In this document: positions 1,665 through 43,930 of the stretch, in pieces | Layout of the letters: every line of letters begins with the position of its first letter | Position numbering within the stretch: the first letter of the stretch is position 1 | Assembly: GCA_035409945.1 (NCBI GenBank) | Contig: DAONQC010000001.1 | Span: forward strand, 21,571 to 85,570 | Origin: Clostridia bacterium | GTDB taxonomy: Bacteria; Bacillota; Clostridia; Christensenellales; DTU072 | Direction: 5' to 3' | Length of the DNA stretch: 64,000 bases | Notes under the pieces: model-generated | Seen by the model: the letters and a program-made list of their open reading frames with translations, nothing else | Database searches by the model: none | What the model was told of the DNA's origin: nothing | Program-made: the position numbers and the translations under genes

Positions 1665-1989
1665 GTTGAGTTGATTGGACGGTTACACAAAAGTGAGGAA
1701 AGTCCGAGCATCATAGAGCAGAATGGCAGAGAAATCCTGCTGAAGGCGACTTCAAGGAAAGTGCAACAGAAAATAACCGCAGTGCATATGTGTTACTGTA
1801 AGGGTGAAAAGGTGTGTTAAGAGCGCACCAGCAGTTTGGCGACAAAATTGGCTGTGTAAACCCCATTCGATGCAAGAAATAGGATAATGAGTTGCTCGCT
1901 CGTCCTATTAATTCGCTAGAGTTATTTGGCGACAAATGACCAAGATAGATGACCGTTGAAACAGAACTCGGCTTATAGATCAACTCATA
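1665..1989 (+). ncRNA. rnpB: RNase P RNA, bacterial type A
   Basis: Universal blocks GAGGAAAGTCCGAGC (5') and ACAGAACTCGGCTTATAG (3') are present. Type-A-like blocks are AGTGCAACAGAAAATAACCGC, GTAAGGGTGAAAAGGTGTGTTAAGAGCGCACC and GTAAACCCCA. P1 pairing is GTTGAGTTGAT (1665-1675) with ATCAACTCA (1979-1987). Confidence 0.93.
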
Positions 1990-2111
1990 AACTAAATTAA
2001 TAACAGTTAGGCGCAGTTTTAACTTTTTTGTATTATGACAATTAAAATCCCAGTTTAACTGTAAGTAATACACTTGAACACACAATTAATTTGTTAAAGG
2101 CAAACTATATT

Positions 2112-13111: not shown

Positions 13112-13521
13112 GCATAACTACAAGAAGAAAGGCACGAGATAGTGTTTATAAGTTGGTTTTTGAATACTTGTTTACTAATAAAATAAATCAAAAATTATTA
13201 GAGACCACTTATATTGTTAATTTACCAAAAGAAGATGTTGAGTACACACAAACTGTTTATTTTGGAGTAATAGAAAGATTTCAAGATCTTAAGATATATG
13301 TTGAAAAATATGCAGAAGGGTTTGTTTTTGAAAGAATTTATAAAACAGATTTAGCTGCAATCTTAATAGCGACTTATGAAATCATATATATGAAGGATAT
13401 ACCTAACAATGTTGCTATAGCAGAAGCTATAGAGTTAGTTAAAAAGTATTCTACTCCTAAAAGCGGTTCTTTTGTTAATGGGGTTTTAAGTGCTATTAAC
13501 AAAGATGTTTCAAAGGGATGA
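13108..13521 (+). CDS. nusB: Transcription antitermination factor NusB
   Basis: Starts with RRKARDSVYKLVFEY and has AIAEAIELVKKYS....FVNGVL near the C-terminus. Confidence 0.9.
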   Translation: MSITTRRKARDSVYKLVFEYLFTNKINQKLLETTYIVNLPKEDVEYTQTVYFGVIERFQDLKIYVEKYAEGFVFERIYKTDLAAILIATYEIIYMKDIPNNVAIAEAIELVKKYSTPKSGSFVNGVLSAINKDVSKG

Positions 13522-13522
13522 T

Positions 13523-14713
13523 ATGGATTCAAATTACTTAACAGTTTCCGAACTTAATTCATATTTAAAGCTAAAAATTGAAGATGATCGTTTGTTGTGG
13601 GAAGTAAATGTTAAAGGAGAAGTGACTGGTGTTCGCATCCACAAGCGTAATTGTTACTTCACTTTAAAAGATGAATTAGCTCAACTTCAAATGATTTGTT
13701 TTAATGGAGTAGTTTGTGATATCCCGAAAGAAGGGGATTATGTACTTGTTACCGGAAGGGTATCGTTTTATGAAAAAAATGGGAACATATCATTTATCGT
13801 TAAAAAAATAGAGCCTTTCGGCAAGGGGAAAATTAATCAAAACATAGAGCTTCTAAGAGAGCAATTATTCAAAGAAGGTTTATTTGACGCTAAAAGAAAA
13901 AAAACACCACCAATATTACCTCGTAAGATTGGAGTTATAACAAGTAAAGATGGTGCTGTTATACAAGATATTTATAGTACGATTAGGAAGTCAAACAGTT
14001 TCATAGATGTTTATGCTATAAATGTGTCGGTTCAAGGAACTAGTGCCGTTAAAGAAATAACCTATGCCCTAAAAAAAGCCGATGATAGTAATATGTTTGA
14101 TGTAATCATTTTGGCAAGAGGAGGAGGGTCTGCAGAAGATTTGATGGCATTTAATACTGAAGATGTAGTCCGTGCTTTAGCGAATTTAAAAACATTCTCT
14201 ATATCCGCAATTGGACATGAAACCGATAATACTTTATGTGATTACGTGGCAGATGAAAGGTGCTTAACGCCTACGGCTGCGGGCGAGTTTGTTTCTAGAT
14301 TGAGCAATAATACAGTAGAATTAGTTTATTCTTCTTTATTAAACATTGATACATATTTAAATAATCTTATTTTAAAGTACAATCATAAGATTTATGTGCG
14401 ATCTAAAGACTTAATATTTAGCTATCATAATAGGATAGATAATTATGCAAATAGAATAATACAAGCTAGTTCTTCTATGGGCACAAAAGCTGATAAGAAA
14501 TTATCATTAATAGAAACAGCGTTAACTTCAACAATTTCTACATTAAAAGCAATAGACCCTAATAAATTGTTCGAAAATGGTTATTTTAAAATTATGAAAG
14601 ACAATAAAAATATAAATACAGTTAAAACACTTAATGCCCAAGACGATATTAAAATTTTTGGTAAAGATGGTGTTGCGTACGCTACAATAAATAAAACAAT
14701 CGTAAAACAATAA
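13523..14713 (+). CDS. xseA: Exodeoxyribonuclease VII large subunit
   Basis: N-terminal OB-fold LTVSELNSYLK, plus the IGVITS..GAVIQDI and ILARGGGS.EDL motifs. ATG 13523 is preferred to the upstream in-frame start. Confidence 0.92.
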   Translation: MDSNYLTVSELNSYLKLKIEDDRLLWEVNVKGEVTGVRIHKRNCYFTLKDELAQLQMICFNGVVCDIPKEGDYVLVTGRVSFYEKNGNISFIVKKIEPFGKGKINQNIELLREQLFKEGLFDAKRKKTPPILPRKIGVITSKDGAVIQDIYSTIRKSNSFIDVYAINVSVQGTSAVKEITYALKKADDSNMFDVIILARGGGSAEDLMAFNTEDVVRALANLKTFSISAIGHETDNTLCDYVADERCLTPTAAGEFVSRLSNNTVELVYSSLLNIDTYLNNLILKYNHKIYVRSKDLIFSYHNRIDNYANRIIQASSSMGTKADKKLSLIETALTSTISTLKAIDPNKLFENGYFKIMKDNKNINTVKTLNAQDDIKIFGKDGVAYATINKTIVKQ

Positions 14714-14756
14714 TAGATGATTGTAATTAGTTTATAAACAGTTGGAGGATGTGATT

Positions 14757-14963
14757 ATGTCTTTGGAAGATAATATTAAAAAACTTGAGGAAATCGTAAA
14801 AAAGATTGATTCCCAAAATATCAATATAGAAGAAAGCCTTGAATTATATGAAGAGGCAATTAATCTATCTAAACTGTGTTTAAGTGGTGTAAAAAAATAT
14901 AAAGGAAAACTTGTTGCATTAACAAAAGAATTAGAAGAAATTACTCAAGACGGTGAAAGGTGA
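14757..14963 (+). CDS. xseB: Exodeoxyribonuclease VII small subunit
   Basis: About 68 aa with LEDNIKKLEEIVKKI....I.IEESLELYEE. GGAGGA lies upstream of ATG 14757. Confidence 0.9.
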   Translation: MSLEDNIKKLEEIVKKIDSQNINIEESLELYEEAINLSKLCLSGVKKYKGKLVALTKELEEITQDGER

Positions 14964-15778
14964 ATATTTACATAGATAAACTAATAGAAAAGATAGATAT
15001 TGCATTAAAAGACATCCTTAACGGTTACAGGGGTATTATTCCTGATGCTTTGTATGAAGGTATGATATATGCTTGTTTCGGAGGGGGAAAGAGAATTAGA
15101 CCTGTTTTAGCACTTGTGACTTTTGAATCAATGCTAGCCCCTTTAACAGACGAACTTGTGTCTTACGCAATAGCACTTGAAATGATCCATAGTTATTCTC
15201 TTGTACATGACGATCTGCCCGGTATGGACAATGATTTAATGCGGAGAGGGAAACCTACTGTCCATGTAAAATTCGGGCAAGGTATGGCTATACTTATTGG
15301 TGATGCACTACTAAATACAGCATATGAAATAATGAATGGAGCAATAAAGGATGCAAGGAGCTCAAAGGCTTGTTCGTACATAATGAAAAAAGCTGGAGTA
15401 TGCGGAATGATTGCAGGACAAGCTAAAGACATAACATATAGAGATGAGCCTATAGAAGAAATATTAAAAATATACGAATATAAAACATCAGCATTATTTC
15501 AAGCAGCTATCGTAACTCCAGCCATTTTACTGGGGAAAAACAAAACCGAACTGGAATTACTAGAAGAATTAGGGAAAAATTTGGGGCTAATATTTCAATT
15601 TAAAGATGATTTATCTGATATTAATAGATGTAATGAGAAGTTAAATACGGCAAAACTATCAAATAAAAAAACAATTGAAAGTTTAATTATGGAACACAGA
15701 CATAATGGCGAATTGCTACTTGAGAAATTAAACCTAAATAATACTAATTTGCATAAAATTATAAATATATACTTTTAA
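14960..15778 (+). CDS. ispA: Polyprenyl (farnesyl/geranylgeranyl) diphosphate synthase
   Basis: First and second Asp-rich motifs are LVHDDLPGMDND and FQFKDDLSD. GTG start overlaps the xseB stop. Confidence 0.9.
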   Translation: MNIYIDKLIEKIDIALKDILNGYRGIIPDALYEGMIYACFGGGKRIRPVLALVTFESMLAPLTDELVSYAIALEMIHSYSLVHDDLPGMDNDLMRRGKPTVHVKFGQGMAILIGDALLNTAYEIMNGAIKDARSSKACSYIMKKAGVCGMIAGQAKDITYRDEPIEEILKIYEYKTSALFQAAIVTPAILLGKNKTELELLEELGKNLGLIFQFKDDLSDINRCNEKLNTAKLSNKKTIESLIMEHRHNGELLLEKLNLNNTNLHKIINIYF

Positions 15779-15810
15779 GCCTATATTCATTTAAAAGTTA
15801 TAATATAGGC
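15779..15810 (+). terminator. Hairpin immediately after ispA (weak terminator or attenuator)
   Basis: GCCTATATT (15779-15787) pairs with AATATAGGC (15802-15810). Only a weak T-tract follows. Confidence 0.35.
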
Positions 15811-15888
15811 CATTTAACTTCGTTTAATTGGGATTGTATATGTAATGTAAAATTTCACGTACAGCCTCGTTGTGTCGAAGTATGTTAT

Positions 15889-15917
15889 TTGCGTTAAATA
15901 TAGTGCTATGATATAAT
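15889..15917 (+). promoter_or_regulatory. Sigma-70-type promoter for the OLE-like RNA
   Basis: TTGCGT (15889-15894), a 17-nt spacer, then an extended -10 TGaTATAAT (15909-15917). Confidence 0.65.
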
Positions 15918-15922
15918 TAATC

Positions 15923-16495
15923 AAATGGTGGTACAGTATTCTAGTCAGATACGGTACGAGCAAAGGCGGGGTTAAAATACCGTCAAAGAGCATATCGATG
16001 AAGTTTCTTGTGTTAGCTTAGATTGCCCAAATCTGGGTTGATGCTGGGAGTTAAGATTTTTGGGCGTTCGGCAAAGGCATGTCGAAGCCGTCCCAATTAT
16101 CGTGGAGACCTATCTCGGCGGAACAACAGTTCTTCTGAATAGGATTAAACCTGTAATGCGGTAACCAATATCTGTGTACAGTGTAGCTTGCCTTGAGTGA
16201 ATTAATGAGGAATAAGGTTTCGGGTTTCTATAAACACGCGAGTTTTTAGTAACCTTTGCTTATGAAACTTAGTTTGCAAAAGAGGATAGTTCGTATCCAT
16301 TCTGTTAAAGAAATTTTCTAGACTGTTTTAAATTAAGGATTATGGTGTGTTCTTAGTGGCGATTCGGTTATACTGTGAGCAATCCTGTATTGTTTGACTT
16401 AAAAGGAAACTGCTTGTACGGCGACGACGAGTATCAAATAGGGAAATCCTACCGAACCTGATGACGCAAGGTTTACTTAATTTAAGCCACCATTT
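15923..16495 (+). ncRNA. ole: OLE (ornate, large, extremophilic) RNA candidate
   Basis: About 570 nt with no sense ORF, G+C-enriched relative to other intergenic DNA. The terminal helix is AAATGGTGG / CCACCATTT, and several internal helices are present. The synteny xseA-xseB-ispA-[RNA]-4TM protein-nadK-argR-recN matches the published OLE locus. Boundaries are approximate. Confidence 0.8.
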
Positions 16496-16564
16496 ATTAT
16501 ATATTAATAATATCGTTTTACGTGGGGTTTTATCTTGAAAATTCAAAAAGGCAGAGAAAATAAA

Positions 16565-17266
16565 ATGCCATTAGATGCACTGAAATTAGAGGAAGAAGGT
16601 GGGGTACCGAAACGAGTTAATGATTTAGGAACGTCATCGCTCAATCAAGTTGATGAGAATAATGTTAGTTTAACAAAACAAAGACAAAAAAAAGATAAAA
16701 AGTCTATTAAAAAGAAGAGTAGCACTATTAAGTGGACAATTAAAATTACAGTAATAACATTAATTTTAGCTTTAATTTTTTCTTTTGCTTCTGAATATGC
16801 TGGTTTATTACATTATTCCGTGTCAATTATCTTACTAATATTACTCATGGCTATTAGTATTGTTTGCGATGCGATTGGAGTTGCGGTTACTTCTTGCGAC
16901 CCCGAACCTATTCATGCAATGGCGAGTAGAAAAGAACCAGCAAGCCGGCAGGCACTATTATTAGTTAGTAATGCAGAAAAGGTATCAAATATATGTTGTG
17001 ATGTCATAGGAGATATTTGTGGTATTGTTAGTGGAGCTTGTCTAATTATTATAATTACCAAAATGACAGTGAATTTAGAGCCTACTATACAATTAGTTTC
17101 GAATATAGTTTTTTCTAGTATTGTCGCTGCAATTACAGTGGGGGGGAAAGCATTAATGAAAGATGTTGCTGTGAATAAATCTAAAAATCTAGTAATGATT
17201 ACTGCTAAATTAATGTCGATTTTTTACAAGCCAAGAGATAATTCTAAACGGAGAAAAAGAAAATAG
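16565..17266 (+). CDS. oapA: OLE-associated membrane protein OapA candidate (4 TM helices)
   Basis: Four hydrophobic helices and a DVIGD (DxxxD) motif in helix 3. It has a Lys-rich N-terminal extension and a basic C-tail, and sits immediately downstream of the RNA. The start is uncertain (TTG 16535 or ATG 16565). Confidence 0.7.
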   Translation: MPLDALKLEEEGGVPKRVNDLGTSSLNQVDENNVSLTKQRQKKDKKSIKKKSSTIKWTIKITVITLILALIFSFASEYAGLLHYSVSIILLILLMAISIVCDAIGVAVTSCDPEPIHAMASRKEPASRQALLLVSNAEKVSNICCDVIGDICGIVSGACLIIIITKMTVNLEPTIQLVSNIVFSSIVAAITVGGKALMKDVAVNKSKNLVMITAKLMSIFYKPRDNSKRRKRK

Positions 17267-17373
17267 AGATTAAATAATCTTGTTTTAAGTTAATATGCTA
17301 TATATAATTAAAACTATGGTCGGTATTTAATATAACTTCTACGAATAATAGTATGAGGGTGAATATAAAGTAG

Positions 17374-18216
17374 ATGAAAATAGGTATATACACAAATCTT
17401 AATAGAGATCCCGATGGCGCTTCTACAAAAAACTTGTTTACTTTGTTGCAAAAGAGGGTAGATTGCGAGGTTTTTTTATCGGAAGAATTAATGCAATTAA
17501 ATCTCAATGCGACGTATCTAAGTAGAGAATCTCTTGCCAAACTGAGTGATATTGTTGTTGTAATGGGTGGTGACGGCACCATTCTTAGGATTGCCCGGGA
17601 GTGTGCCCTTCACAATGCGTTAATTTATGCAATTAATCTAGGTAGTAAAGGTTTTCTTTCAGAGTCTGAAAACAATGGACTACAATCTCAAGTTGATTTT
17701 TTGCTCTCCAAAAAGTATGCTATTGATGAGAGGCGTTTATTAGAGGTTAAATCACGCAAAGAAACTTTCTTTGCCTTGAATGAAGTAGTATTAGCTCGCG
17801 GAGAAAAAGTTAAAACTATTAAATGTGAAATCCGGCAGAATGATGAACTTATGGATAGATATGTTGCTGACGGGGTTATTATAAGTACTCCGACGGGAAC
17901 TACGGCGTATAATCTTTCTGCAGGTGGACCAATAGTCGCTCCAGATGTGCGAGCTTTAATTGTTACGCCTATTTCTGCGCATTCATTACATTCGAAACCA
18001 GTAGTTGTGAGTGATAAAAATATAATTAATATATCTTTATTAACAGTTGATACTTGTGCGCATTTAAGTATAGATGGAGAAGATGTAATGCATTTAGTAG
18101 AAGGAGACTCCTTTTGTGTAAAAACATCGAATCTAGTAGCTCGATTCATTAGGCAGAGTAATTATAGTTTTTTTGAAAGATTATTATATAAATTTAGGAA
18201 GTGGAGTGAGTTTTAA
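17374..18216 (+). CDS. nadK: NAD kinase
   Basis: GGDGTILR motif and the TPTGTTAYNLSAGGPI motif. Confidence 0.93.
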   Translation: MKIGIYTNLNRDPDGASTKNLFTLLQKRVDCEVFLSEELMQLNLNATYLSRESLAKLSDIVVVMGGDGTILRIARECALHNALIYAINLGSKGFLSESENNGLQSQVDFLLSKKYAIDERRLLEVKSRKETFFALNEVVLARGEKVKTIKCEIRQNDELMDRYVADGVIISTPTGTTAYNLSAGGPIVAPDVRALIVTPISAHSLHSKPVVVSDKNIINISLLTVDTCAHLSIDGEDVMHLVEGDSFCVKTSNLVARFIRQSNYSFFERLLYKFRKWSEF

Positions 18217-18218
18217 GA

Positions 18219-18662
18219 ATGCAAAGAAATAAAAGACAAGAAAAAATATTATATATTATTGACACTGAAAATATAGAAAATCAGCAACAGTTAACGGATA
18301 TTTTGAATAAAGAAGGGTTTAAAATTACGCAGGCAACAGTTTCTCGCGATATTAAAGAACTTGGCTTATCTAAGAGAAAAGGACCAGACGGTATTGCGTG
18401 CTATAAAAGGCCATTAGACCCTAAACTTAGTAAACTCAAAACGTTATTTCATCAATCTGTGACGAAGATTGATTATACTCAAAATATCATTATTATCAAG
18501 ACATTAAGTGGGAGCGCAAATTCAGCTTGTGCTTTAATTGATAAACTCAATCATCCATATATAGTAGGGACAATTGCGGGAGATGACACTATTATGATAG
18601 TCGTTCGCTCTTCAGAATTTGTACCTATCGTACTTAAGTTATTAGAGAGTTATAGGGATTAA
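18219..18662 (+). CDS. argR: Arginine repressor
   Basis: N-terminal wHTH with ITQATVSRDIKELGL, and C-terminal GTIAGDDTIMIV. Confidence 0.92.
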   Translation: MQRNKRQEKILYIIDTENIENQQQLTDILNKEGFKITQATVSRDIKELGLSKRKGPDGIACYKRPLDPKLSKLKTLFHQSVTKIDYTQNIIIIKTLSGSANSACALIDKLNHPYIVGTIAGDDTIMIVVRSSEFVPIVLKLLESYRD

Positions 18663-18666
18663 CATT

Positions 18667-20391
18667 ATGCTTTTGTCATTGCATGTCCAAAATGTTGCGG
18701 TAATTAGCGATTTAACAATTGACTTTGGTTCCGGATTGAATGTGATCACGGGTGAAACGGGGGCTGGAAAATCAATTGTGATTGACAGCCTCAATTTTGT
18801 TTTAGGAGAAAGAGCAGATCGTTCGCTAATTAGACACGGCGAAAATATGGCGGTTGTACAAGCGAGTTTTCATTGTTCAGACAACCTTGCAGTTATGGAA
18901 TTGTTGGATGAATATGGTGTATCTTGTGATGCAGACGGTATAATAATTATTAGGCGTAGTATGACACAAACAGGCCGTTCTGACTGCAAAATTAATGGCT
19001 GGGCGGTAACAGTAGGACAGCTACGCCGTTTAGTTGTATTGTTGATTGACGTTCATTCTCAACATCAAACGCAATCGCTTTTAGATGAGCAGACACATAT
19101 TAACATTTTAGATTCTTATTCGAAAAAAATTATTGAAATTCTCGATAAATATGAAAAATCATTTTTTAAGTATAAAAACTTATTGAAAACGTTATCAGAA
19201 TATCCTGATAGGAGTAATCTTGCTAGAGAAATAGATATGTTAAGCTATCAAATTAACGATATTGAATCTGCGCGTTTAGAACAAGGCGAAGAAGAGCTGT
19301 TGGTAGTAGAAAGAAATAAATTACAAAATAACGAAAGGTTATTAGAAGCTGCTAATATTATTGTTTCTTTGATTGATGGTAGGGACGGGATGGGATTGGA
19401 TTCCGCTCTAACTCTTATGCTAAAGCAAGTCTCGTTTATGACAAAATTTGACCCATCTATATCTGATTTAACGGATAGATTAGAAAGTGTACAGATTGAA
19501 ATTAACGATCTTAAAGATGTGTTTTTAGAATATATTGAAACAAATACAGATGGGATAGAAAAACTTGAACAAATTGAACAACGAATAGATGTTATACGGA
19601 AAATTAAAAGAAAATATGGAACTGACATTGAAGAAGTGCTAAGAAAGCTGGATGAGTATAAAATACGCTTAGATTTTTTAAGCGATGCAGAATCAAATTT
19701 ATCTGAACTTAATAAATGTATAAGCAAAGTGATTTATGAGTTGTTGAGTATAGCTAAAATGCTTAGCGATGAAAGGGATAAGACGGGTCGTTTATTGTCG
19801 CGTGAAATTGTTAAGCAGCTTATAGATTTAGGCATGAAGCATGCGGAATTTAATGTAGATGTAGACTTTTTTGGCGAAGTTGTGGAAAAACTCACTCATA
19901 AAGGTGGGGATAATGTGAGATTTGCTATTAGTCTTAATCCTGGAGAACCTTTAAAACCTCTTTCTAGAGTAGCCAGCGGTGGAGAAATGAGTAGGGTTAT
20001 GTTAGCAATTAAAAACATCACTGCGGATTTAGAAAATATAGACACGCTTATTTTTGATGAAATCGATACGGGAATTTCAGGCAATGCAGCCAAAACTGTG
20101 GCTCAAAAATTACATAACATAGCGAGTAAAAGACAGGTTATAGTTGTTACCCATCTTGCACAAATAGCCGCTATGGCTGATAGTAATTTTTTAATAACTA
20201 AGAGTGTATATGAATCTGAAACGGTTTCAGAAATACATCATTTAACTGATGAAGAAACAATTTATGAATTAATGCGAATTTTAGGGAGTGAATCAAAAAG
20301 CGAAACAGGTTATGGACATGCAAAAGAACTTAAACTAAACGCCAATTTGTATAAAGAGTCGCAAAAACAGCTATTGTATAATAAAAAATAA
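18667..20391 (+). CDS. recN: DNA repair protein RecN
   Basis: Walker A GETGAGKS, a long coiled-coil middle, the ABC signature ASGGEMSRVMLA, and Walker B LIFDEIDTG. Confidence 0.95.
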   Translation: MLLSLHVQNVAVISDLTIDFGSGLNVITGETGAGKSIVIDSLNFVLGERADRSLIRHGENMAVVQASFHCSDNLAVMELLDEYGVSCDADGIIIIRRSMTQTGRSDCKINGWAVTVGQLRRLVVLLIDVHSQHQTQSLLDEQTHINILDSYSKKIIEILDKYEKSFFKYKNLLKTLSEYPDRSNLAREIDMLSYQINDIESARLEQGEEELLVVERNKLQNNERLLEAANIIVSLIDGRDGMGLDSALTLMLKQVSFMTKFDPSISDLTDRLESVQIEINDLKDVFLEYIETNTDGIEKLEQIEQRIDVIRKIKRKYGTDIEEVLRKLDEYKIRLDFLSDAESNLSELNKCISKVIYELLSIAKMLSDERDKTGRLLSREIVKQLIDLGMKHAEFNVDVDFFGEVVEKLTHKGGDNVRFAISLNPGEPLKPLSRVASGGEMSRVMLAIKNITADLENIDTLIFDEIDTGISGNAAKTVAQKLHNIASKRQVIVVTHLAQIAAMADSNFLITKSVYESETVSEIHHLTDEETIYELMRILGSESKSETGYGHAKELKLNANLYKESQKQLLYNKK

Positions 20392-20571
20392 ATATTTACT
20401 CCAAATTCATCACCAAATTAGAACTATGTCGTCTTGAAGTTGTAAATTCACTTCGTGTATAATATCAAGTTAACTGATATATTTTAAATATATTGTTTGT
20501 ATTATTGTAGTTTCTTTTACTTTTTTTATTAATAATGATATAATTTTTTGAATTATTATGTGAGGTTGCTT

Positions 20572-34908: not shown

Positions 34909-35991
34909 ATGGAAAAGACTAACTATTTTGAATTAAAAAAGTATAACCAATTATCTAAGTTAAATGATATTTTGGAAAATAATCTACCATTTTTTTGTAG
35001 GGAATTCTTCGTAGGAATTTCAATGCGTGTAGCATCATCAACTCAATTGAATTATGCTAGAGATTTAGTCATATTTTTCGATTTTCTTGTAAAAAAAATT
35101 AACCATTTCTATGGAAAATCCATAAACTCAATAACATTGGCTGATTTAGATGCTTTAGAAAGTCAACATATAGAGTTTTATTTGAGTTATCTATCCTACT
35201 ATAAATTTAATGGAAAAATCAGAACTAATAATGAAAGAGGCAAAGCAAGAAAGCTAAGCGCTATTAAATCTATGTTAAATTATTTTTATAAGAGAGATTT
35301 AATTCAAGAAAATGTCAGTTTAAAAGTTGATACTCCAAAAATTCACGATAAACCCATTATTCGTCTTGATAATGACGAAGTCGAATCAATGTTATCAGTA
35401 GTTGAAAAAGAATCTAAGTTTCATTCATCACGTCAAGATAATTATAATTCAAGAGTTATTAAACGCGATACTGCCCTATTAACACTACTTTTAGGTACTG
35501 GTATAAGAGTTAGTGAATGCGTCGGTCTAAATTTACTAGATATAGACTTTAAAAATAATGCCTTTAAAGTAACTCGAAAAGGTGGTAATATATCAGTGCT
35601 CTATTTTTCTAACGAAATTAAACAGGCACTTGATGACTATATTATATGGAGGTATGAACGATTGGCGAAAGCAAATAAACTCGATACGCCTGCTTTGTTT
35701 ATAAGCCTTCAAAACAAGCGTATTACTACACGCGCAGTTGAAAATATTGTAAAAAAATATGCGAAATTAATTTCTCCATTAAAATCTATATCTCCACATA
35801 AACTACGAAGCACATATGGTACTGCTTTATACAGAGAAACTAAAGATATCTTTATTGTAGCTGAAGTATTAGGACATAAGGATGTAAATACAACAAAAAA
35901 ACATTATGCTGCTATATCTGAAGACATAAAAAAAGATGCTGCGACGAGAGTAAAATTACGTAGACATTCTCAAATAGACACAGACAAGTGA
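34909..35991 (+). CDS. XerS-like tyrosine site-specific recombinase
   Basis: A complete R-K-H-R-H-Y catalytic set is present (GIRVSE, VTRKGG, HKLRST, LGHKD, KKHY). The N-terminal core-binding region has an XerS-like pattern (LPFFCREFF...FFDFLV), as recalled from memory. Confidence 0.8.
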   Translation: MEKTNYFELKKYNQLSKLNDILENNLPFFCREFFVGISMRVASSTQLNYARDLVIFFDFLVKKINHFYGKSINSITLADLDALESQHIEFYLSYLSYYKFNGKIRTNNERGKARKLSAIKSMLNYFYKRDLIQENVSLKVDTPKIHDKPIIRLDNDEVESMLSVVEKESKFHSSRQDNYNSRVIKRDTALLTLLLGTGIRVSECVGLNLLDIDFKNNAFKVTRKGGNISVLYFSNEIKQALDDYIIWRYERLAKANKLDTPALFISLQNKRITTRAVENIVKKYAKLISPLKSISPHKLRSTYGTALYRETKDIFIVAEVLGHKDVNTTKKHYAAISEDIKKDAATRVKLRRHSQIDTDK

Positions 35992-36071
35992 AATTATTAA
36001 TCAAGATTTAGAATCATTATTTACTTTAATTAACGATAATTATTGAGAGTATAGCCAGAAGAGGACTTTAA

Positions 36072-36695
36072 ATGAAAAATGATATTATAACCAACAAATT
36101 AAATAAATTGAGGTTTTTTTTAAAGGAGTATTTTATTAAAAACACCTATCCACCCACTATTAGAGAAATTTGTAACTATATGGGTTTCAAATCTACGTCC
36201 AGTGCACATAAATATCTTAGATTGTTAAGAGATTTAGGAGAGATATCGATTGATTCCAATATAAGTAGAGGTATTAAGCTAGAAAAGAACATTTTTGAAT
36301 TGCCAGGAATTAATTTAGTCCCCCTACTTAGTAGTATTGTTTCGGGTCAACAGCTCTTCGCGGAGGAGTCATATACCAAGCATATTCCCCTTCCTCAATC
36401 ATTTTTTGGTTACAATGATAATTTATTGTTGATTAAAGTTTCAGGTTCAAGCATGATAGATGTAGGCATTAATGATGGGGATTATATTGTAATTCATAAA
36501 CAACCATTTGCTTCTAGCGGTGATATAATAGCTGCTTTAATTGACAACGAATATATAACAGTTAAAAGATATTATATAGACCATAATAACGTGGTTAGAT
36601 TGCACCCTGAAAATAAAAACATGAGTGATGTTTATCCTGAAAACATTCAAGTTTTGGGTATAGTAAAAGGACTTATTCGTACAGAGGTAAAATAA
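36072..36695 (+). CDS. lexA: LexA repressor (S24 peptidase)
   Basis: wHTH with YPPTIREI, catalytic Ser in GSSMID and Lys in TVKRYY. The cleavage-site position reads VS-GQ rather than the usual A-G. Confidence 0.88.
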   Translation: MKNDIITNKLNKLRFFLKEYFIKNTYPPTIREICNYMGFKSTSSAHKYLRLLRDLGEISIDSNISRGIKLEKNIFELPGINLVPLLSSIVSGQQLFAEESYTKHIPLPQSFFGYNDNLLLIKVSGSSMIDVGINDGDYIVIHKQPFASSGDIIAALIDNEYITVKRYYIDHNNVVRLHPENKNMSDVYPENIQVLGIVKGLIRTEVK

Positions 36696-38077
36696 TGAAT
36701 AAAATTAACACAATTAATACTGACTTATTTAGGAGTAGAGTGGACACGATTGTGTTGAATACCCTATCGGAAAAAGATAGGTATGGTTATGAAATTCTAG
36801 AAATAATCGCACAAAATTCAGTTAGTCACTATGAAATTAAGCAATCAACATTATATAGTATTTTAAAACGACTAGAAAACTTAGAGTATATATCGTCATA
36901 TGATGGACTCGAAACTAATGGCGCGCAACGTAAATACTATACTCTAACAGACAAAGGTAGAAGTTTTTTAGAAACACAGAAATATGAATGGGAGTATACA
37001 AGGACTCTATTAGACAAATTGGTTAGTAATAAGCCTGTTGACTTAATTGATTCTTTATCCACATTCCCTTATAATCCAAATGATTTAAAGCCAAAGACGC
37101 CTAGAAAATCAAAATTACAAGGTCAACAGGAGTATGATGATAATATAAATATGCAACAAGATGCAAAAGATATGAATAATAATATTGATTTATCTACTGA
37201 AACAACAAGTTTTAACATAAATCAAACGCTAGAATCAGACATGAGTTTTAAAAATCAAAGGGAAAACAATCAATCACCATCTATGGAAGAACAATTAGAA
37301 AGAGAACGGGCCGAAAAGCTTTTAGGATTAGGAGTATACTTACCACTAGAATCAACTGATGTGTCCAATAAGAATGCTGACGACATAAACGTACAACCTA
37401 CGCTTTCGACCATAGGAGTCGCAGAAAATAGTATAATAAATGCTACGCCAAGTTTAAACTATAGAGAAGCCCTAGGCTTATTATATACCGATGACAACAG
37501 TCTTTTTCATGATGGAGAGATTACTAATGAAGCAAACGAAGAGGCGCTGTATATCAAGGCTGAAAACTCTCGTTTCCCGCACTATAACGATATGAAAAAA
37601 AGGCTATTTGATGAAGGGTACACCGTAAAGACATACAACAAGGCAAACTCTAGTAATTTTTATTATATGAACTATTATTATTCTAACAAACTATTTAGAG
37701 ATTTAACACTTATTGTTTATATATTTTATGCTACCCTACTTACGATATTAAGCTTTTTGCCCGAAGCATTACAATTGTCAAGACCTTCTTTTTTATCCGC
37801 ACTAGGTATTGGGTTAATAGTTCCAACAGTTAGATTATTAATATATTTACAAAACCCACTCAAGAGAATAAGAGCAAAATTTAACGCATTAAAAATAATA
37901 TTATATTTTACCCTATGGATGACTTTTTCAGTATTAATAATTTTTCTTATCAATTTAATAAATGATACAATTTGTGATAGTTTATATTTAGTATTTATTC
38001 TATACTCAAGCATACCATTTGCAATGCTAATATACTATTTGATGTTTAGATCAAATAAATATCATTTAAAGAAATAG
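36695..38077 (+). CDS. PadR-family wHTH protein fused to a low-complexity linker and a 4-TM C-terminal membrane domain
   Basis: PadR signature (LSEKDRYGYEILE...STLYSILKRLE...RKYYTLTDKG). An Asn/Gln/Asp-rich linker follows, then four hydrophobic helices at aa ~335-455. The start overlaps the lexA stop (TAATG). Confidence 0.75.
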   Translation: MNKINTINTDLFRSRVDTIVLNTLSEKDRYGYEILEIIAQNSVSHYEIKQSTLYSILKRLENLEYISSYDGLETNGAQRKYYTLTDKGRSFLETQKYEWEYTRTLLDKLVSNKPVDLIDSLSTFPYNPNDLKPKTPRKSKLQGQQEYDDNINMQQDAKDMNNNIDLSTETTSFNINQTLESDMSFKNQRENNQSPSMEEQLERERAEKLLGLGVYLPLESTDVSNKNADDINVQPTLSTIGVAENSIINATPSLNYREALGLLYTDDNSLFHDGEITNEANEEALYIKAENSRFPHYNDMKKRLFDEGYTVKTYNKANSSNFYYMNYYYSNKLFRDLTLIVYIFYATLLTILSFLPEALQLSRPSFLSALGIGLIVPTVRLLIYLQNPLKRIRAKFNALKIILYFTLWMTFSVLIIFLINLINDTICDSLYLVFILYSSIPFAMLIYYLMFRSNKYHLKK

Positions 38078-38085
38078 AAATATTG

Positions 38086-38535
38086 CTATCTGTTATTTGA
38101 TTTAGTCAAAGATTCTCTTCGAGCCATTTCATCACATTTATTGTTATATTGGTTATCAGAATGCCCTTTTACTTTATTAAATGTAACGATATGAGGCTGT
38201 ATTGCATAAACAAGCCTTTCCCATAGATCTTTATTTTTGACTGGTTGGCGAGTTTTTGTTTTCCAATCATTATTTTTCCAGTTAGTAATCCACCCTTCTT
38301 GAAATGCATTTACTAAATATGCACTATCTGAGTATAAATTTACAAAACACGGTTCTTTTAAAGCCTCAATACCTTTTATTGCAGCAAGTAATTCCATTCT
38401 ATTATTTGTTGTTTCCGGCACGTTACCATATAAGATTTTTTCATGTTGTTGATAAATTAAGATTGCACACCATCCACCGTTTCCAGGGTTACCGCTACAG
38501 GCTCCATCAGTATAAATATCTACTCTTTTATTCAT
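38086..38535 (-). CDS. rnhA: Ribonuclease HI
   Basis: The motifs IYTDGACSGNPG.GGW, NNRMEL.A and KGHS....N..CD are present. Confidence 0.92.
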   Translation of the reverse strand: MNKRVDIYTDGACSGNPGNGGWCAILIYQQHEKILYGNVPETTNNRMELLAAIKGIEALKEPCFVNLYSDSAYLVNAFQEGWITNWKNNDWKTKTRQPVKNKDLWERLVYAIQPHIVTFNKVKGHSDNQYNNKCDEMARRESLTKSNNR

Positions 38536-39347
38536 TGTTTAACCTCTGAGAGTTGTTTTGATCGTGCAGCACAGGCTTTAACGCCATTCAGTATAATCTC
38601 ATCCAAGTTTTCAGTTCGGAACACATTAATAGCTTCTACAGTTGTTCCACCTTTGCTGGAAACTTTTGTAATTAATTCTTCTAATGAATCTTTAGAATTA
38701 ATAGCGAACAGAGTACTTCCTAGAAAAGTATTAAATACAAGTTTACTACTGATTTCCTGCGTGAGCCCAACATCAACGCCTGCATCAATTAATGACTTTA
38801 AAAAGTAGAATACATATGCTGGTCCACTACCGCTAATGCTTGTAAGGGCATCAAATTGATGTTCAGGAATTTCAATGGTTTCACCACATACATTAAAGAT
38901 ACTATTAATAAGGTTCATTTCTTGACGATTACACGTATTAGGATAGGTAATACCTATAGTACCATTTCCATCTAGGCAGGGCAAGTTGGGCATTGCTCTG
39001 ATAATAGGTCCATTAAAATTCGTAACTTCTCTAATTTTTGCAATACTTACTCCAGCCATAATTGATACAATATATTGCGATAATATGCTTTTATTACTAA
39101 ATGAAAGCTGGGAAAATGTTTGTGGTTTGATGGCAAAAAAAGTAATATTTGCTTTATTTAATACATCATCAATATTCGTTGTTGTATTAAAACCCAAACT
39201 TTCATAATATGATAATTTATTTAAATCGGTATCGCATATGATGATATTATTGCTATCTAGATTAACTAAATGCTTATTCTGAAAAACATTATTAATTATT
39301 GCACCACCCATATTGCCTGCACCAACGAACCCTATTTCAAATCTCAT
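38532..39347 (-). CDS. proC: Pyrroline-5-carboxylate reductase
   Basis: The true start is MRFEIGFVGAGNMGGAI (Rossmann GxGxxG), with AAAGGAG upstream. The track ORF extension to 39494 reads antisense through tRNA-Trp. Confidence 0.88.
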   Translation of the reverse strand: MRFEIGFVGAGNMGGAIINNVFQNKHLVNLDSNNIIICDTDLNKLSYYESLGFNTTTNIDDVLNKANITFFAIKPQTFSQLSFSNKSILSQYIVSIMAGVSIAKIREVTNFNGPIIRAMPNLPCLDGNGTIGITYPNTCNRQEMNLINSIFNVCGETIEIPEHQFDALTSISGSGPAYVFYFLKSLIDAGVDVGLTQEISSKLVFNTFLGSTLFAINSKDSLEELITKVSSKGGTTVEAINVFRTENLDEIILNGVKACAARSKQLSEVKQ

Positions 39348-39364
39348 AAGACGCTCCTTTTTCA

Positions 39365-39394
39365 TTGACATAATATCTTTTAAATATATATAAT
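39365..39394 (+). promoter_or_regulatory. Promoter for tRNA-Trp
   Basis: TTGACA (39365-39370), an 18-nt spacer, then TATAAT (39389-39394). Confidence 0.6.
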
Positions 39395-39407
39395 AAACAT
39401 TAGTTAA

Positions 39408-39483
39408 AGGGGAGTGGCTCAATTGGTAGAGCATCGGTCTCCAAAACCGACGGTTGCGTGTTCGAGTCGCGTCTCCCCTGCCA
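39408..39483 (+). tRNA. trnW: tRNA-Trp (anticodon CCA), CCA end encoded
   Basis: Cloverleaf: acceptor AGGGGAG/CTCCCCT, D-arm GCTC..GAGC, anticodon stem TCGGT/ACCGA with loop CTCCAAA, and T-arm GCGTG-TTCGAGT-CGCGT, ending in GCCA. Confidence 0.93.
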
Positions 39484-39486
39484 ACC

Positions 39487-39522
39487 ATGTCCATTATGTA
39501 ACTACATAATGGACATTTTTAT
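39487..39522 (+). terminator. Rho-independent terminator after tRNA-Trp
   Basis: A 14-bp stem, ATGTCCATTATGTA / TACATAATGGACAT, followed by TTTTTATT. Confidence 0.8.
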
Positions 39523-39728: not shown

Positions 39729-42005
39729 TTACTTATTATTTTTATCCTCTTGTAGCTGTTTAAACAATTTTTGACCTTGTTCGGTATCACCAAATGTTGC
39801 TCCTGTAGTAGTGCTTGAAATATAACTACTATCGGAATCATTATTATTTTCTTTTTTCTTTGTTTTTGGTTTTGCCTTGGATTCTTCTCTGCTAACCTTG
39901 ACTGCTTCTTTATCCAATTTGTTTTTCAATAGTCTATTTTCATCGTGTTCTGGCTTTTCAATAAGTTCTTTTATGCTAAGGCTAATTTTATTCTTATCAT
40001 ATTTAGTTACTTTTGCTTTAATAGTATCTCCTACTTTAAGAAAATCATTTATATCTTCGACGCGCTGATGTGCAATCTGTGATATATGAACTAAACCATC
40101 AATGTTTTCTCCCATAGATACAAAAGCACCAAATGGCATAATTCGTTCTACTTTGCCTTCAACAGTAGATCCAACTGGATATTTTTCTTCAATAATTTCA
40201 ATTGGGGATTTTTGGAGTTCTCTATAACTTAAAGAAACTTTATTTGTAGCCCTGTCAGCTTCCTTTACAATAAAATCGTACTCTTCTCCTTCAGTAAGGA
40301 CTTCGGATGGATCTTTGATTCTATTCCAACTTAATTCGGAAATATGTGCCAAACAGTCATGTCCATTAACAGAAACAAAAGCTCCAAAAGGATGGTTGTT
40401 TTTCTTTCCAAATCTTACGACTGTACCTTTAACTACATTACCAACAACAGCAACTTCATTCCAAAAAGCATCTTCTTTTTCTTGTAATATTTCTTTTTGT
40501 CCTGCATGCAATACCTTGTTCGATTTGATATGTTTTTTAGTTCCTTCTTTTGGTTCCTCATCATCTTCTGTCAATAGTCTTAGTGTTAGAGTTTTGCCAA
40601 TATATTGATCAAGTTTTCCTTTAACACCGTTTAACTCAATTTTACTTTTTGGCACAAAAACTTTATATCTTCCAACTTCACAAAGCAATTTAGTTTCGTT
40701 TCTATTTACTCCTGTGCATTTAAGTTCGACATCGTGACCTTGTTTAAGTAACTCTATTTTTTCTTCTTCTTTTATGATTGCTACACATTTAATGTGCGAG
40801 AATAAAATTTGATGTTTTTGTTCGGTATTGATCACAACCGCCAGTATGTCATCGCCCTCTTTTATATCAGCATCTGGGTCGATTTCATCCTTTTCTATGA
40901 TGCCTAAATCATTCTTTATACTTCCATCACCGTAAGATACTTGTAATCTCCCCTCGTCATCGATTGCAACAACATGAACTGATTTGATGTCTCCTATATT
41001 TAATTGTTTCGAATTGTTTGGAACTGGCATAGACATGACTTTATCCATAAATTCATTTTGTTGGTCTGAACTATTTACTTCAGGTGTTCTGATATTGACT
41101 TCGTTATTAGTGTTAGATTCGTCAGTATCAACGATTTCGATGTTTGTGCTTTCTTCTTTCATTAATTTAATAACCTCCAAAACCAACCCATTTGGGGTCG
41201 ATGCTCCAGTAAAAATACCGATGTTTTTATTATTCATTATCTCTTTCAAATTTATATTTAACTCGTCTAAATTTGAAATGAAATAGACTTTATTGCAATT
41301 AGCTCTTGCGATGTTATAAAGCTCTACCGTATTATTGCTTGCTTTATCACCTAATATAATCATTACATCTGATAATGATAATACTTTACTGCAACTATCT
41401 CTTCTTGCTAAAGTAGTATAACAAATGCTATTGAATATATCAACTGATTTATTATCTTTTATCGCAATAGATTGCAAGTTATTTAATAAATAGGAGATAT
41501 CTTTTGTTGAGAAAGTTGTTTGAAATACAATATAAAATTTGTCTGATAATGTTAAAAAAGTAAAGTCATTAATATCTTCTATAATAACTGCATTTTTAGC
41601 TATGGAGGCAATGCCCTTTACTTCGGGATGATTAGGATTTCCATATATTATAATTTGAAAACCATTATTGCTATATTGTAAAACATTTTTATGTATTATT
41701 TTAACCGATGGACATGTAGCATCTATTAATTTACAGTTTTTTTCTTTTAATAAATCAAGTGTAGATGATTCACAACCGTGTGCTCTTATTAGCACCGTTG
41801 AATTATTTGGAATTTCATCTGCCTTTTCAACTGTTATTAATCCTTTTTCGGATAGTTGTGAAATTACGATTTCATTATGTATTATAGACCCAATACTATA
41901 TAAGAATTGGTTATGTTTATCAAGGAATTGTTTTGCAAGAGTCACAGCGTTAGCTACTCCCCCACAAAATCCTATAGATTTACTAGCTATTATAATTCTG
42001 TGCAT
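39729..42005 (-). CDS. ispH: Bifunctional 4-hydroxy-3-methylbut-2-enyl diphosphate reductase (IspH/LytB) / ribosomal protein S1-domain fusion
   Basis: The N-terminal ~280 aa is IspH-like (GFCGGV..AV, ATCP.V). Repeated S1 domains follow (G.VV.G.V......GAFV). The C-terminus is a basic/acidic tail. Confidence 0.88.
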   Translation of the reverse strand: MHRIIIASKSIGFCGGVANAVTLAKQFLDKHNQFLYSIGSIIHNEIVISQLSEKGLITVEKADEIPNNSTVLIRAHGCESSTLDLLKEKNCKLIDATCPSVKIIHKNVLQYSNNGFQIIIYGNPNHPEVKGIASIAKNAVIIEDINDFTFLTLSDKFYIVFQTTFSTKDISYLLNNLQSIAIKDNKSVDIFNSICYTTLARRDSCSKVLSLSDVMIILGDKASNNTVELYNIARANCNKVYFISNLDELNINLKEIMNNKNIGIFTGASTPNGLVLEVIKLMKEESTNIEIVDTDESNTNNEVNIRTPEVNSSDQQNEFMDKVMSMPVPNNSKQLNIGDIKSVHVVAIDDEGRLQVSYGDGSIKNDLGIIEKDEIDPDADIKEGDDILAVVINTEQKHQILFSHIKCVAIIKEEEKIELLKQGHDVELKCTGVNRNETKLLCEVGRYKVFVPKSKIELNGVKGKLDQYIGKTLTLRLLTEDDEEPKEGTKKHIKSNKVLHAGQKEILQEKEDAFWNEVAVVGNVVKGTVVRFGKKNNHPFGAFVSVNGHDCLAHISELSWNRIKDPSEVLTEGEEYDFIVKEADRATNKVSLSYRELQKSPIEIIEEKYPVGSTVEGKVERIMPFGAFVSMGENIDGLVHISQIAHQRVEDINDFLKVGDTIKAKVTKYDKNKISLSIKELIEKPEHDENRLLKNKLDKEAVKVSREESKAKPKTKKKENNNDSDSSYISSTTTGATFGDTEQGQKLFKQLQEDKNNK

Positions 42006-42661
42006 ATTTTCTCAATCCTTGCAACTACTTCATCAATACTTAAACCGCTAGTATCAATCTGAACCGCATCTTCAGTACAAATCAAAGGCGCAAAATCACG
42101 TGTCATATCTTGATGATCTCTGGTTTTAATTTCTTGTAAAATTGTTTGAAAGTTATCTTCTGCACCTTTTTCCATGAGTTCTTTATTTCGTCTCTGCGCT
42201 CTGACTTCTGGTTTAGCTGTCAAGTAAATTTTAACGTTGGCATTTGGTAGTACATAACTTCCAATATCTCTCCCATCTAATACGCAATTACATTGCGCTG
42301 CAATCTCACGCTGAATAGTTACAAGTTTTATTCTTACAATAGGATTTTTTGAAATGGTTGAAGCGCCCATGCTAATTTCATTTGTACGTATTTTATTAGT
42401 AACATCGATACCGTTTATAAAGACATGTTGTTTATTGTCAATATAGTCAATTGATAATTCGATATCATCAATCATATTATTAATTTTTTCTGTTTCATGT
42501 GGTTGAATGCCGTTTTCTAGAAAATAGTAAGCTATAGCGCGATACATAGCCCCAGTGTCCAGATATACTAAATTCATTTTTTCTGATAAGATTTTTGCAA
42601 CTGTGCTTTTACCCGATCCTGCAGGTCCATCTATTGCTATGTTTATAACTTTTTTTGTCAT
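41990..42661 (-). CDS. cmk: Cytidylate kinase
   Basis: The motifs IAIDGPAGSGKST and LDTGAMYRA are present, and the gene lies upstream of the S1 gene as usual. Confidence 0.93.
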   Translation of the reverse strand: MTKKVINIAIDGPAGSGKSTVAKILSEKMNLVYLDTGAMYRAIAYYFLENGIQPHETEKINNMIDDIELSIDYIDNKQHVFINGIDVTNKIRTNEISMGASTISKNPIVRIKLVTIQREIAAQCNCVLDGRDIGSYVLPNANVKIYLTAKPEVRAQRRNKELMEKGAEDNFQTILQEIKTRDHQDMTRDFAPLICTEDAVQIDTSGLSIDEVVARIEKICTEL

Positions 42662-43930
42662 TTATTTATTATATCCTCCGTTTTATTAATATATTCGCAT
42701 ACGCCTCTCCCCGCCGTAACACCAGAAGAGAACGCAAATTGTAAATTATATCCACCTGTAAGAGCATCAACATCAATAATTTCTCCAGCAAAAAATAAAT
42801 TATCAATGATTTTGCTCTGCATAGTTTTAGGATTTATTTGTTTAACATCGACACCACCAGCTGTAACAACAGCCCGTTCAGTATCTAGAGATGAAATTTG
42901 ATACTTTACACCTTTAAGAGAATTAGCTAGTTTTCTAATATCCTCGCTTGTTAGATTTGCGAGTTGCTTACATGGATTAATATTGGATTGTAAAAGTATC
43001 TTAGATGTCATCTTCTTAACAGTGAGTTTTGGTATAATATGTTTTACTTGTTGTTTGCCATACAGTGGCACCATATTAATTATTCTATCTTCTAACACTT
43101 CTATAGGTAATGCTGGTTTCAAATCAATCGATGCAAATAATGTTTCGTTTAAGAGTTTGCGATTGATTTTTGAAGATAAGCTTAAAACAATAGGACCTGA
43201 AATTCCATTGTTTGTAAAAATCATTTCTCCAAAATCATTAGCAATTACCAGGTCGTTAGTATTAATAATCGATAATGATACATTTTTAAGAGACAGCCCT
43301 TCGGGAAGTTCTTGACTTGTGTCATCGAATAGCATACTAGTTAGAGCTGGGACTGGTGGAATAAGAGTTACACCTAGTTTCTTAAGAATATCAAAACCTA
43401 ATCCATCAGAGCCAGTATGAGGATAATAGATTCCTCCTGTTGCCATAATAACGGCATCTGAACACATTTTTTGTTTGGTTGTAATAATTTCTTTAATAAT
43501 ATTGTTTTCTTGAATTAAGCTAATTACAGTTTCATTAAAATATATGGTAATTCCTCGTGATATCAATTCATTATAAATTATATCTATTACATCCGAACTT
43601 TTGTTGCTTTTAGGGAACATCCTTCCCCCTCTCTCTTCTACTATCTCAAGCCCTCGTGACTTAAAAAAAATGCACAGTGTCATTGTATGTGAATTGAGAA
43701 AATGAACTGTATGTAAATTTAGGATTTGAAATAATTTTAGAAATAGGGTTATTGTTACTGTTTGTTAAATTACATCGCCCTTTTCCTGTAATATATAGTT
43801 TCCTACCAATCTTATGATTTCTCTCAATTAAAATAACTTCTATATTAGGATTGTTTTCGGCAATTGCTAAAGCTGCAAATGGTCCTGCAGCGCCTCCTCC
43901 AATAACTACAACTCTTGATTTCCTATACAT
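42658..43930 (-). pseudogene. HI0933/YhiN/BaiN-like FAD-dependent oxidoreductase interrupted by a frameshift in a T8 run
   Basis: The N-terminal ORF (43661..43930) carries VVVIGGGAAG and GKGRCNLTN. The C-terminal ORF (42658..43683) carries GRMFP.S.K..DV and the rest of the family. Removing one T from the run at 43663-43670 gives a continuous HFFKSRGLEIVEE reading. Confidence 0.75.

Follow-up and report, generated by a model that had tools for sequence, protein, structure and literature searches.

An OLE RNA gene followed by oapA in the gap between ispA and nadK of a Clostridia bacterium

Which gene occupies the gap behind ispA on contig DAONQC010000001.1 of a Clostridia bacterium (assembly GCA_035409945.1), where the + strand offers no open reading frame (ORF) of at least 50 amino acids? 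The stretch analysed here, hereafter the window, comprises 64,000 nucleotides of the forward strand of this contig (positions 21,571 to 85,570), and in window coordinates the ORF-free gap extends over 15779-16534. A first-pass annotation had proposed an OLE RNA gene in this gap and, behind it, the gene of the membrane protein OapA. We are nearly certain that the gap indeed holds a gene for an OLE (ornate, large, extremophilic) RNA of the full-length type, behind which the gene of its membrane partner OapA follows. The locus is of an already known and well-catalogued kind and is found by a routine Rfam scan.

Identity and fold of the RNA

For the detection of RNA families, the whole window was scanned with cmscan against Rfam 15, in which the OLE family has a gathering score of 50. 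The match to the OLE model (RF01071) reached 416.9 bits (E 4.9e-119), spans model positions 1-616 of 616 without truncation and takes in a few bases of flanking sequence on either side:

15912-16506, + strand, OLE RNA gene (limits of the RF01071 match)

This comparison had been suggested by the first-pass annotation as a check, and its outcome bears out the proposal. The score is on par with those of three related loci in which OLE was likewise confirmed by Rfam (L001, 409.6 bits; L006, 391.5 bits; L011, 444 bits), and nhmmer searches with the window RNA against relatives gave E-values down to 1e-119. Counted from P1 to P1 the RNA is 573 nucleotides (nt) long, and the Rfam match covers 595 nt; the nearest relatives of this RNA have 591-599 nt, and the OLE RNA of Clostridium acetobutylicum has 577 nt. 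The length is typical, and the earlier remark that the RNA lies at the short end of the range does not hold. Of the 595 window positions, 121 fall into invariant columns and about 70 more into columns conserved to at least 90%; the window carries the conserved residue at all of the former and almost all of the latter. About 25% of OLE nucleotides are described as invariant in the literature. The RNA departs from the Rfam consensus in just two places: its P7 loop is shorter, and a hairpin at model positions 424-435 is missing.

The base composition had been noted as a further peculiarity of the gap, and the counts given for it were exact on recount (29 of 60 G+C in 16021-16080 compared with 10 of 60 in 20461-20520); the OLE RNA as a whole has 40.3% G+C and the window 32.8%. 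The gap had also been described as free of sense ORFs, which is correct, and as containing a single antisense ORF of 68 amino acids (16340-16546), to which a second one of 59 amino acids (15814-15993) has to be added.

To obtain the fold, the Rfam helices were transferred to the window, and the long-range helices P1, P2 and P3/P3.1, which are unpaired in the Rfam structure line, were added. The window RNA and 42 relatives from other genomes were aligned with MAFFT, and covariation was counted over these 43 sequences. In this alignment 84.6% of the cells pair, compared with 40-44% when the 3′ partners are slid, compensatory changes occur in 133 of the 178 base pairs, and none of 500 shuffles reached the observed pairing values. 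The following parts of the fold were mapped:

15923-16495 (573 nt), + strand, conserved OLE fold from P1 to P1, covariation in 43 sequences
15923-15931 / 16487-16495, + strand, P1, strands AAATGGTGG / CCACCATTT
15933-15937 / 16322-16326, + strand, P2, plus CUAG 15941-15944 / 16318-16321
15946-15954 / 16291-16304, + strand, P3 and P3.1
16109-16143 (35 nt) and 16151-16181 (31 nt), + strand, P7 and P8, Rfam alignment; helices 10 and 11 covary
16327-16486, + strand, 3′ domain with P12-P15; helices 18-24 pair in 74-97% of cells

The pairing of the two RNA ends, which had been spotted in the first-pass annotation, corresponds to P1, and seven of its nine pairs have changed on both sides. The P7 hairpin alone folds with -13.1 kcal/mol (z = -4.3), and every one of helices 18-24 in the 3′ domain shows compensatory changes. 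Three local helices had been listed as well. Their sequences are present, but they were rejected as parts of the conserved fold because each would need a strand that belongs to a covarying helix of the consensus: ACGGTA/TACCGT competes with P3.1 (15949-15954 / 16291-16296) and P4 (15965-15970 / 15979-15984), GCCCAAATCT/AGATTTTTGGGC occupies the P5.1 loop and the 5′ strand of P6, and GGATA..TATCC occupies the 3′ strand of P3.1.

Two shortened types were described by Fernando and Breaker, of which variant 1 has a shortened P7-P9 region and has lost the OapB site in P13, and variant 2 lacks P7 and P8. The window RNA is neither of these but of the full-length type, since P7, P8, a full-length P9 and an intact P13 motif with the OapB site are all present. 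It resembles the variants in stemming from an uncultured, presumably anaerobic organism known only as a metagenome-assembled genome and in being slightly trimmed.

Contact sites in the RNA and the protein OapA

Because the model numbering equals that of Halalkalibacterium halodurans for the first 200 positions, and the Rfam alignment is ungapped at the kink-turn (k-turn), the published sites can be transferred directly:

15965-15984, + strand, P4 hairpin with A-rich loop GUUAAAAU at 15971-15978 (Rfam alignment, covarying helix 6)
15994-16057, + strand, k-turn region around P5/P5.1 (Rfam alignment)
16004-16050, + strand, P5/P5.1 with conserved loop GCCCA at 16025-16029 (Rfam alignment)
16055-16101, + strand, P6/P6.1 with loop AAGGCA at 16074-16079 (Rfam alignment, covariation)
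16190-16286, + strand, P9 long arm (97 nt) with apical loop ACGCGA at 16236-16241 (Rfam alignment, covariation)
16370-16390, + strand, P13 with GNRA tetraloop GCAA at 16379-16382 and bulged U16376 two nt upstream
16412-16432, + strand, P14.1 with secondary tetraloop GCGA at 16421-16424 (Rfam alignment)

The k-turn bound by OapC consists of nucleotides 83-92 and 140-146, with an essential C85-G144 pair (PMC9723947). Its counterpart in the window has the 5′ strand AUC-GAU-GAAG (15994-16003) and the 3′ strand UUAAGAU (16051-16057), the essential pair is retained as C15996-G16055, and OapC would be expected to bind here. OapB recognises the GNRA tetraloop of P13 together with one bulged nucleotide located two positions 5′ of it (PMC7936274); when 16369-16391 is folded to minimum energy, exactly this U bulge and GCAA tetraloop result.

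In the OLE dimer observed by cryo-electron microscopy (cryo-EM), the A-rich loop of P4 is a dimerisation contact and the loops of P5.1 and P6.1 form an intermolecular kissing contact (PMC12265935). In the window RNA, the GGC of the P6.1 loop is complementary to the GCC of the P5.1 loop. The P9 apical loop carries the palindrome CGCG (16237-16240). For this loop, the part of the account by Kretsch et al. considered here names the palindromes GGCC, GAUC and AGCU and describes a symmetric kissing loop (PMC12286853). Among 69 OLE RNAs, the loop core was GGCC in 53, CGCG in eight, AGCU in four and non-palindromic in one, and distal P9 was absent from three. The eight carriers of CGCG are the window and its nearest relatives, with a matching loop in L001-L007. 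CGCG is consistent with a symmetric kissing loop and would be a further, fourth P9 palindrome beside those named in that part of the account. All four dimer contacts known from cryo-EM (PMC12265935, PMC12286853) are represented in the sequence, and dimerisation would be expected. Distal P9 with its palindromic loop, a dimer contact, is missing in L008 (7007-7570), L017 (1176-1740) and L076 (2848-3437), and the P9 loop of L016 reads GGCA, which is not a palindrome.

The gene behind the RNA was delimited as follows:

16535-17266, + strand, oapA, 243 amino acids, TTG start (homologues, helices, DxxxD, CNNM-like fold)

Its coding sequence had been placed at about 16565, but most likely starts at the TTG at 16535, because the closest homologues begin with MKVKK or MKTKK and the window protein with MKIQK. 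A metagenome-assembled genome at NCBI, labelled Clostridia bacterium, encodes a 'hypothetical protein' with 100% identity to it. The window protein has 3651 homologues, many with a precomputed CNNM (PF01595) match. Four transmembrane helices and a DVIGD motif had been claimed for it, and both were recovered. Hydropathy gave four hydrophobic segments (residues 68-86, 98-116, 157-175 and 185-203), and the AlphaFold2 model contains long helices at 58-88, 90-120, 147-178 and 183-214, with block-averaged confidence values (predicted local distance difference test) of 77-95 for residues 61-230 and below 50 for residues 1-51. DVIGD corresponds to D156-D160, encoded at 17000-17014, and both aspartates are invariant in 30 homologues. 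All invariant OapA residues are kept, and the gene is intact. OapA is related to CNNM proteins and distinguished from them by the DxxxD motif (PMC11332333). In line with this relationship, the top four matches of the model in a Foldseek search against PDB were transmembrane domains of CNNM/CorB/CorC proteins (7m1t, 7cfg, 7cff; probability 0.99-1.0); all other PDB matches had a probability of at most 0.11.

Basic clusters flank the membrane segments, namely KQRQKKDKKSIKKK at residues 48-61 and the C-terminal KRRKRK. The N-terminal tail of 66 residues is disordered in the model over residues 1-51 and Lys-rich over 48-66. Such an extension had been regarded as unusual; tails ending in a Lys-rich stretch are, however, found in most relatives and vary highly in length and sequence. 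Compared with OapA as published, the window protein has the same place 3′ of ole, four transmembrane helices, DVIGD, basic clusters and a CNNM-like fold, and differs by this 66-residue tail. An ordinary Mg2+ transporter of the CNNM/CorB/CorC/MpfA type (PF01595; PDB 7m1t, 7cfg) was considered, since the fold of its transmembrane domain is the sole convincing structural match. It was rejected: PF01595 was matched below threshold, the protein ends 40 residues past the last membrane helix without a pair of CBS domains or a CorC_HlyC domain, it has DxxxD, and its gene is linked to an RNA gene.

The linkage of OLE and oapA was examined with nhmmer and the window RNA in 80 homologue-encoding loci, all of them from GTDB species representatives. 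OLE lies immediately upstream of the oapA homologue on the same strand in 73 of them, and in three of the seven exceptions the contig ends too near the gene. By its helices, the DxxxD motif, the CNNM-like fold and this adjacency, the protein encoded at 16535-17266 fits OapA, as had been anticipated in the proposed similarity check; by analogy, it would bind the RNA and recruit it to the membrane.

Three loci (L015, L051, L032) carry an oapA homologue with DVIGD directly after ispA and no OLE within the 16-kb locus, and L034 also has oapA without OLE. No runs of N (masked sequence) occur in these four loci without an OLE match. In the first three, the ispA-oapA spacers are only 50-90 nt long (L015, 7831-7923; L051, 7879-7950; L032, 7894-7944), so that OLE is truly absent there. 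In the four loci, either OLE has moved elsewhere in the genome or OapA persists without it.

Transcription of ole-oapA and competing explanations

A promoter just before the RNA had been suggested as an extended -10 type (TTGCGT, 17 nt, TGaTATAAT). The sequence is present as described, and two features bear on the transcript:

15889-15917, + strand, predicted sigma-A type ole promoter: -35 box TTGCGT (15889-15894), 17-nt spacer, extended -10 element TGaTATAAT (15909-15917)
16496-16534, + strand, AU-rich spacer of 39 nt between ole and oapA, with GGGG (16524-16527) as a weak Shine-Dalgarno candidate

The ole promoter escaped a consensus promoter scan of the window, because only three of the six positions in its -35 box agree with the consensus. 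It was accepted nevertheless, since the -10 element is conserved: in nearly all of 67 related OLE loci, a hexamer resembling a -10 box stands 16-28 nt 5′ of the invariant motif TATTCTAGTC. These elements are mostly extended (TGnTAnnnT), and most have a TTG... -35 box at the usual spacing. A second, overlapping -10 element, TGcTATGAT, lies at 15904-15912. Transcription would be expected to start at about 15919-15925, at the 5′ edge of P1. The window ole appears to have a promoter of its own, whereas the H. halodurans cluster has been reported as one polycistronic transcript.

No terminator was found in the 39-nt spacer between ole and oapA, either by the terminator scan or by folding (z = 0.18 against shuffles), and 64 of 74 related loci likewise lack a terminator-like hairpin at this place. 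Therefore, ole and the oapA message are probably transcribed together at first, and processing would produce the mature 3′ end of OLE. Terminator-like hairpins (e.g., AAGGGAUUAUCCCUU followed by a U run) do occur after OLE in L025, L039, L070, L072 and L074. These loci belong to metagenome-assembled genomes mostly labelled Bacilli or Bacillales (L074, Erysipelotrichaceae), and most Clostridia loci have no such hairpin; OLE may be a separate transcription unit in the lineages that have one. Right after the oapA stop codon, an AU-rich hairpin, GAGAUU-AAAU-AAUCUU, is followed by GUUUU (17266-17286, + strand); it may be a weak terminator that closes the ole-oapA unit before nadK.

Set beside the OLE RNAs of H. 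halodurans, C. acetobutylicum and C. botulinum (cryo-EM for both Clostridium RNAs), the window RNA has the same P1-P15, loops, k-turn and P13 motif, the same position between ispA and oapA and a host in Bacillota (Clostridia). It differs from the studied RNAs by the loss of hairpin 424-435, a P7 loop that is 9 nt shorter and the P9 palindrome CGCG instead of GGCC, GAUC or AGCU. Since no difference from the known system emerged, the published account of its action is best supported, with H. halodurans and the clostridial cryo-EM structures as sources of homology. To judge from the window sequence, transcription would start from the conserved extended -10 element a few bases before P1 and read through into oapA, and the 3′ end of the RNA would be formed by processing. 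According to the published account, the RNA would adopt a two-domain fold and dimerise via the loops of P4, P5.1/P6.1 and P9. Dimeric OapA would hold the RNA dimer at the membrane, where OapB and OapC would bind if present, and the particle would aid tolerance to short-chain alcohols, cold, excess Mg2+ and poor carbon sources. A bolder model, which we consider unlikely, would make ole-oapA of this lineage a self-contained transcription unit with its 5′ end set exactly at P1 by the conserved promoter, in which OLE is the 5′ part of the oapA mRNA, co-translational membrane insertion of OapA delivers the RNA in cis and the clade-specific CGCG loop restricts dimerisation to RNAs with the same loop.

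Several points weigh against the reading as an OLE/OapA locus. Neither oapB nor oapC (KOW-type YbzG and YbxF/L7Ae-type proteins) was detected in Pfam scans of the long ORFs of the 64-kb window. As the RNA sites of OapB and OapC are both intact, these proteins would be expected elsewhere in the genome, whereas MpfA, which is anticorrelated with OLE (PMC11332333), would be expected to be absent. For the OapA protein, PF01595 (CNNM) scored 19.1 bits against a cutoff of 28.4, no NCBIfam family exceeded its cutoff (one match of 16.6 bits against 43), and a sequence search of PDB chains gave no match; these negatives were to be expected and say little, because the libraries do not contain the OapA family. 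Its likeness to OapA was judged from published descriptions of OapA. Relative to the Rfam consensus, the P7 loop is shortened by 9 nt, and the 12-nt hairpin at model positions 424-435 is deleted, as it is in the closest relatives. For this organism, finally, the reading is built on sequence, structure and synteny, with the transcript, its ends, abundance, stability and membrane localisation carried over by homology.

Among the alternatives, a cis-acting 5′ leader of the oapA mRNA, which would control expression or localisation of the message and would not be released as a stable RNA, accounts for the promoter just before P1, the probable single initial transcript without a terminator before oapA and the mere 39 nt between P1 and the start codon. 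We nevertheless judge it very improbable: the family to which the RNA fully belongs has been shown to be abundant, to bind OapA, OapB and OapC and to form RNA-only dimers, the RNA keeps every mapped protein and dimer contact site, and a terminator-like hairpin follows OLE in some relatives.

Decay is harder still to reconcile with the data, and there is scarcely any likelihood that a streamlined genome has merely kept a non-functional remnant of OLE in the gap. Such a relic would be in keeping with a cluster and a whole window devoid of dxs and tlyA, the deletion of model positions 424-435, the shortened P7 loop and the loss of OLE with retention of oapA in the relatives L015, L032 and L051. 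Its score of 416.9 bits, however, equals those of the three relatives given above, the conserved residues stand in all 121 invariant and almost all of the further conserved columns, and compensatory changes maintain the helices within the clade. In addition, the P9 loop switched from palindrome to palindrome rather than to random sequence, and oapA is intact with all its invariant residues. A chance likeness of ordinary G+C-rich intergenic DNA or of the two small antisense ORFs (68 and 59 amino acids; 16340-16546 and 15814-15993) to OLE has virtually no probability left and is refuted by the covariance model score (E 4.9e-119), the pairing-preserving substitutions (133 of 178 pairs compensatory) and the nhmmer matches (down to 1e-119).

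Gene order, other features of the window and significance

The genes around ole and oapA were assigned by Pfam and NCBIfam matches:

13490-14713, + strand, xseA
14742-14963, + strand, xseB
14960-15778, + strand, ispA, farnesyl diphosphate synthase (Pfam polyprenyl_synt, NCBIfam farnesyl diphosphate synthase)
17374-18216, + strand, nadK
18219-18662, + strand, argR
18667-20391, + strand, recN

The complete order is nusB-xseA-xseB-ispA-ole-oapA-nadK-argR-recN and recurs in related loci. The gene order from xseA to recN had been read correctly in the first-pass annotation, as had the end of ispA at 15778, which agrees with the ORF list and the Pfam and NCBIfam matches. The cluster does lack dxs and tlyA, as had been noted, and so does the whole 64-kb window (tblastn with queries from related loci verified by Pfam), but this is not unusual among close kin. 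Of 69 related loci with sufficient downstream sequence, 43 have the order oapA-dxs-tlyA-nadK and 14 have tlyA without dxs; oapA is directly followed by nadK only in L001 and L006, both near kin of the window. To judge from these sequences, the lack of dxs and tlyA in the OLE cluster is a clade trait. An ORF of 758 amino acids (39729-42005, - strand) combines an IspH (LytB) domain with S1 RNA-binding repeats. Since it is encoded, the methylerythritol phosphate pathway is present although the OLE cluster lacks dxs, and as the window encodes both ispA and this ispH-S1 fusion, dxs is presumably located elsewhere in the genome.

The identity of the oapA product with a protein from a genome labelled Clostridia bacterium, and the nearest related loci in Christensenellaceae and Ca. 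Stercoripulliclostridium genomes, place the host in Bacillota. OLE hosts in this phylum are typically anaerobes or extremophiles, and such a lifestyle would be expected here.

Further features were noted outside the OLE locus. An ORF of 2818 amino acids (45431-53887, - strand) gave zero Pfam or NCBIfam matches. Its product is rich in Ser, Asn and Thr, has a hydrophobic segment in its N-terminal part and carries a membrane anchor and a basic tail at the C-terminus; it resembles a giant surface protein and would represent an undescribed family. An HI0933-like flavoprotein gene (42658-43930, - strand) is broken up between the ORFs 43661-43930 and 42658-43683, whose matches to PF03486 cover successive parts of the family model; this suggests a frameshift, a pseudogene or an error in the assembly. 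Bacterial RNase P RNA of class A was found at 1667-1991 (+ strand, 255 bits), and an antisense ORF of 124 amino acids over it (1711-2085) is almost certainly spurious. For a pyrroline-5-carboxylate (P5C) reductase-like protein, the longest ORF (38532-39494, - strand) extends at its 5′ end into a tRNA-Trp gene (CCA; 39408-39483) on the + strand, and the reductase-like gene probably starts further downstream. A phage-type integrase, LexA and a 460-amino-acid protein with an N-terminal PadR domain are encoded in a row at 34909-38077 (+ strand).

With 2,822 OLE genes already catalogued in Bacillota (PMC11332333) and an end-to-end match to a public model, the window copy by itself adds little. For annotation, 15912-16506 should be labelled as a non-coding RNA gene and 16535-17266 as oapA, the product of which is now called a 'hypothetical protein' at NCBI. 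The comparative gains, drawn from 73 related loci, are the recurrent -10 element before P1, the rarity of a terminator between ole and oapA and the CGCG loop as a fourth P9 palindrome, which agrees with the published homodimer kissing loop. OLE ranks among the largest non-coding RNAs conserved in bacteria that still await a biochemical function in any species, and each confirmed locus adds comparative data to this family.

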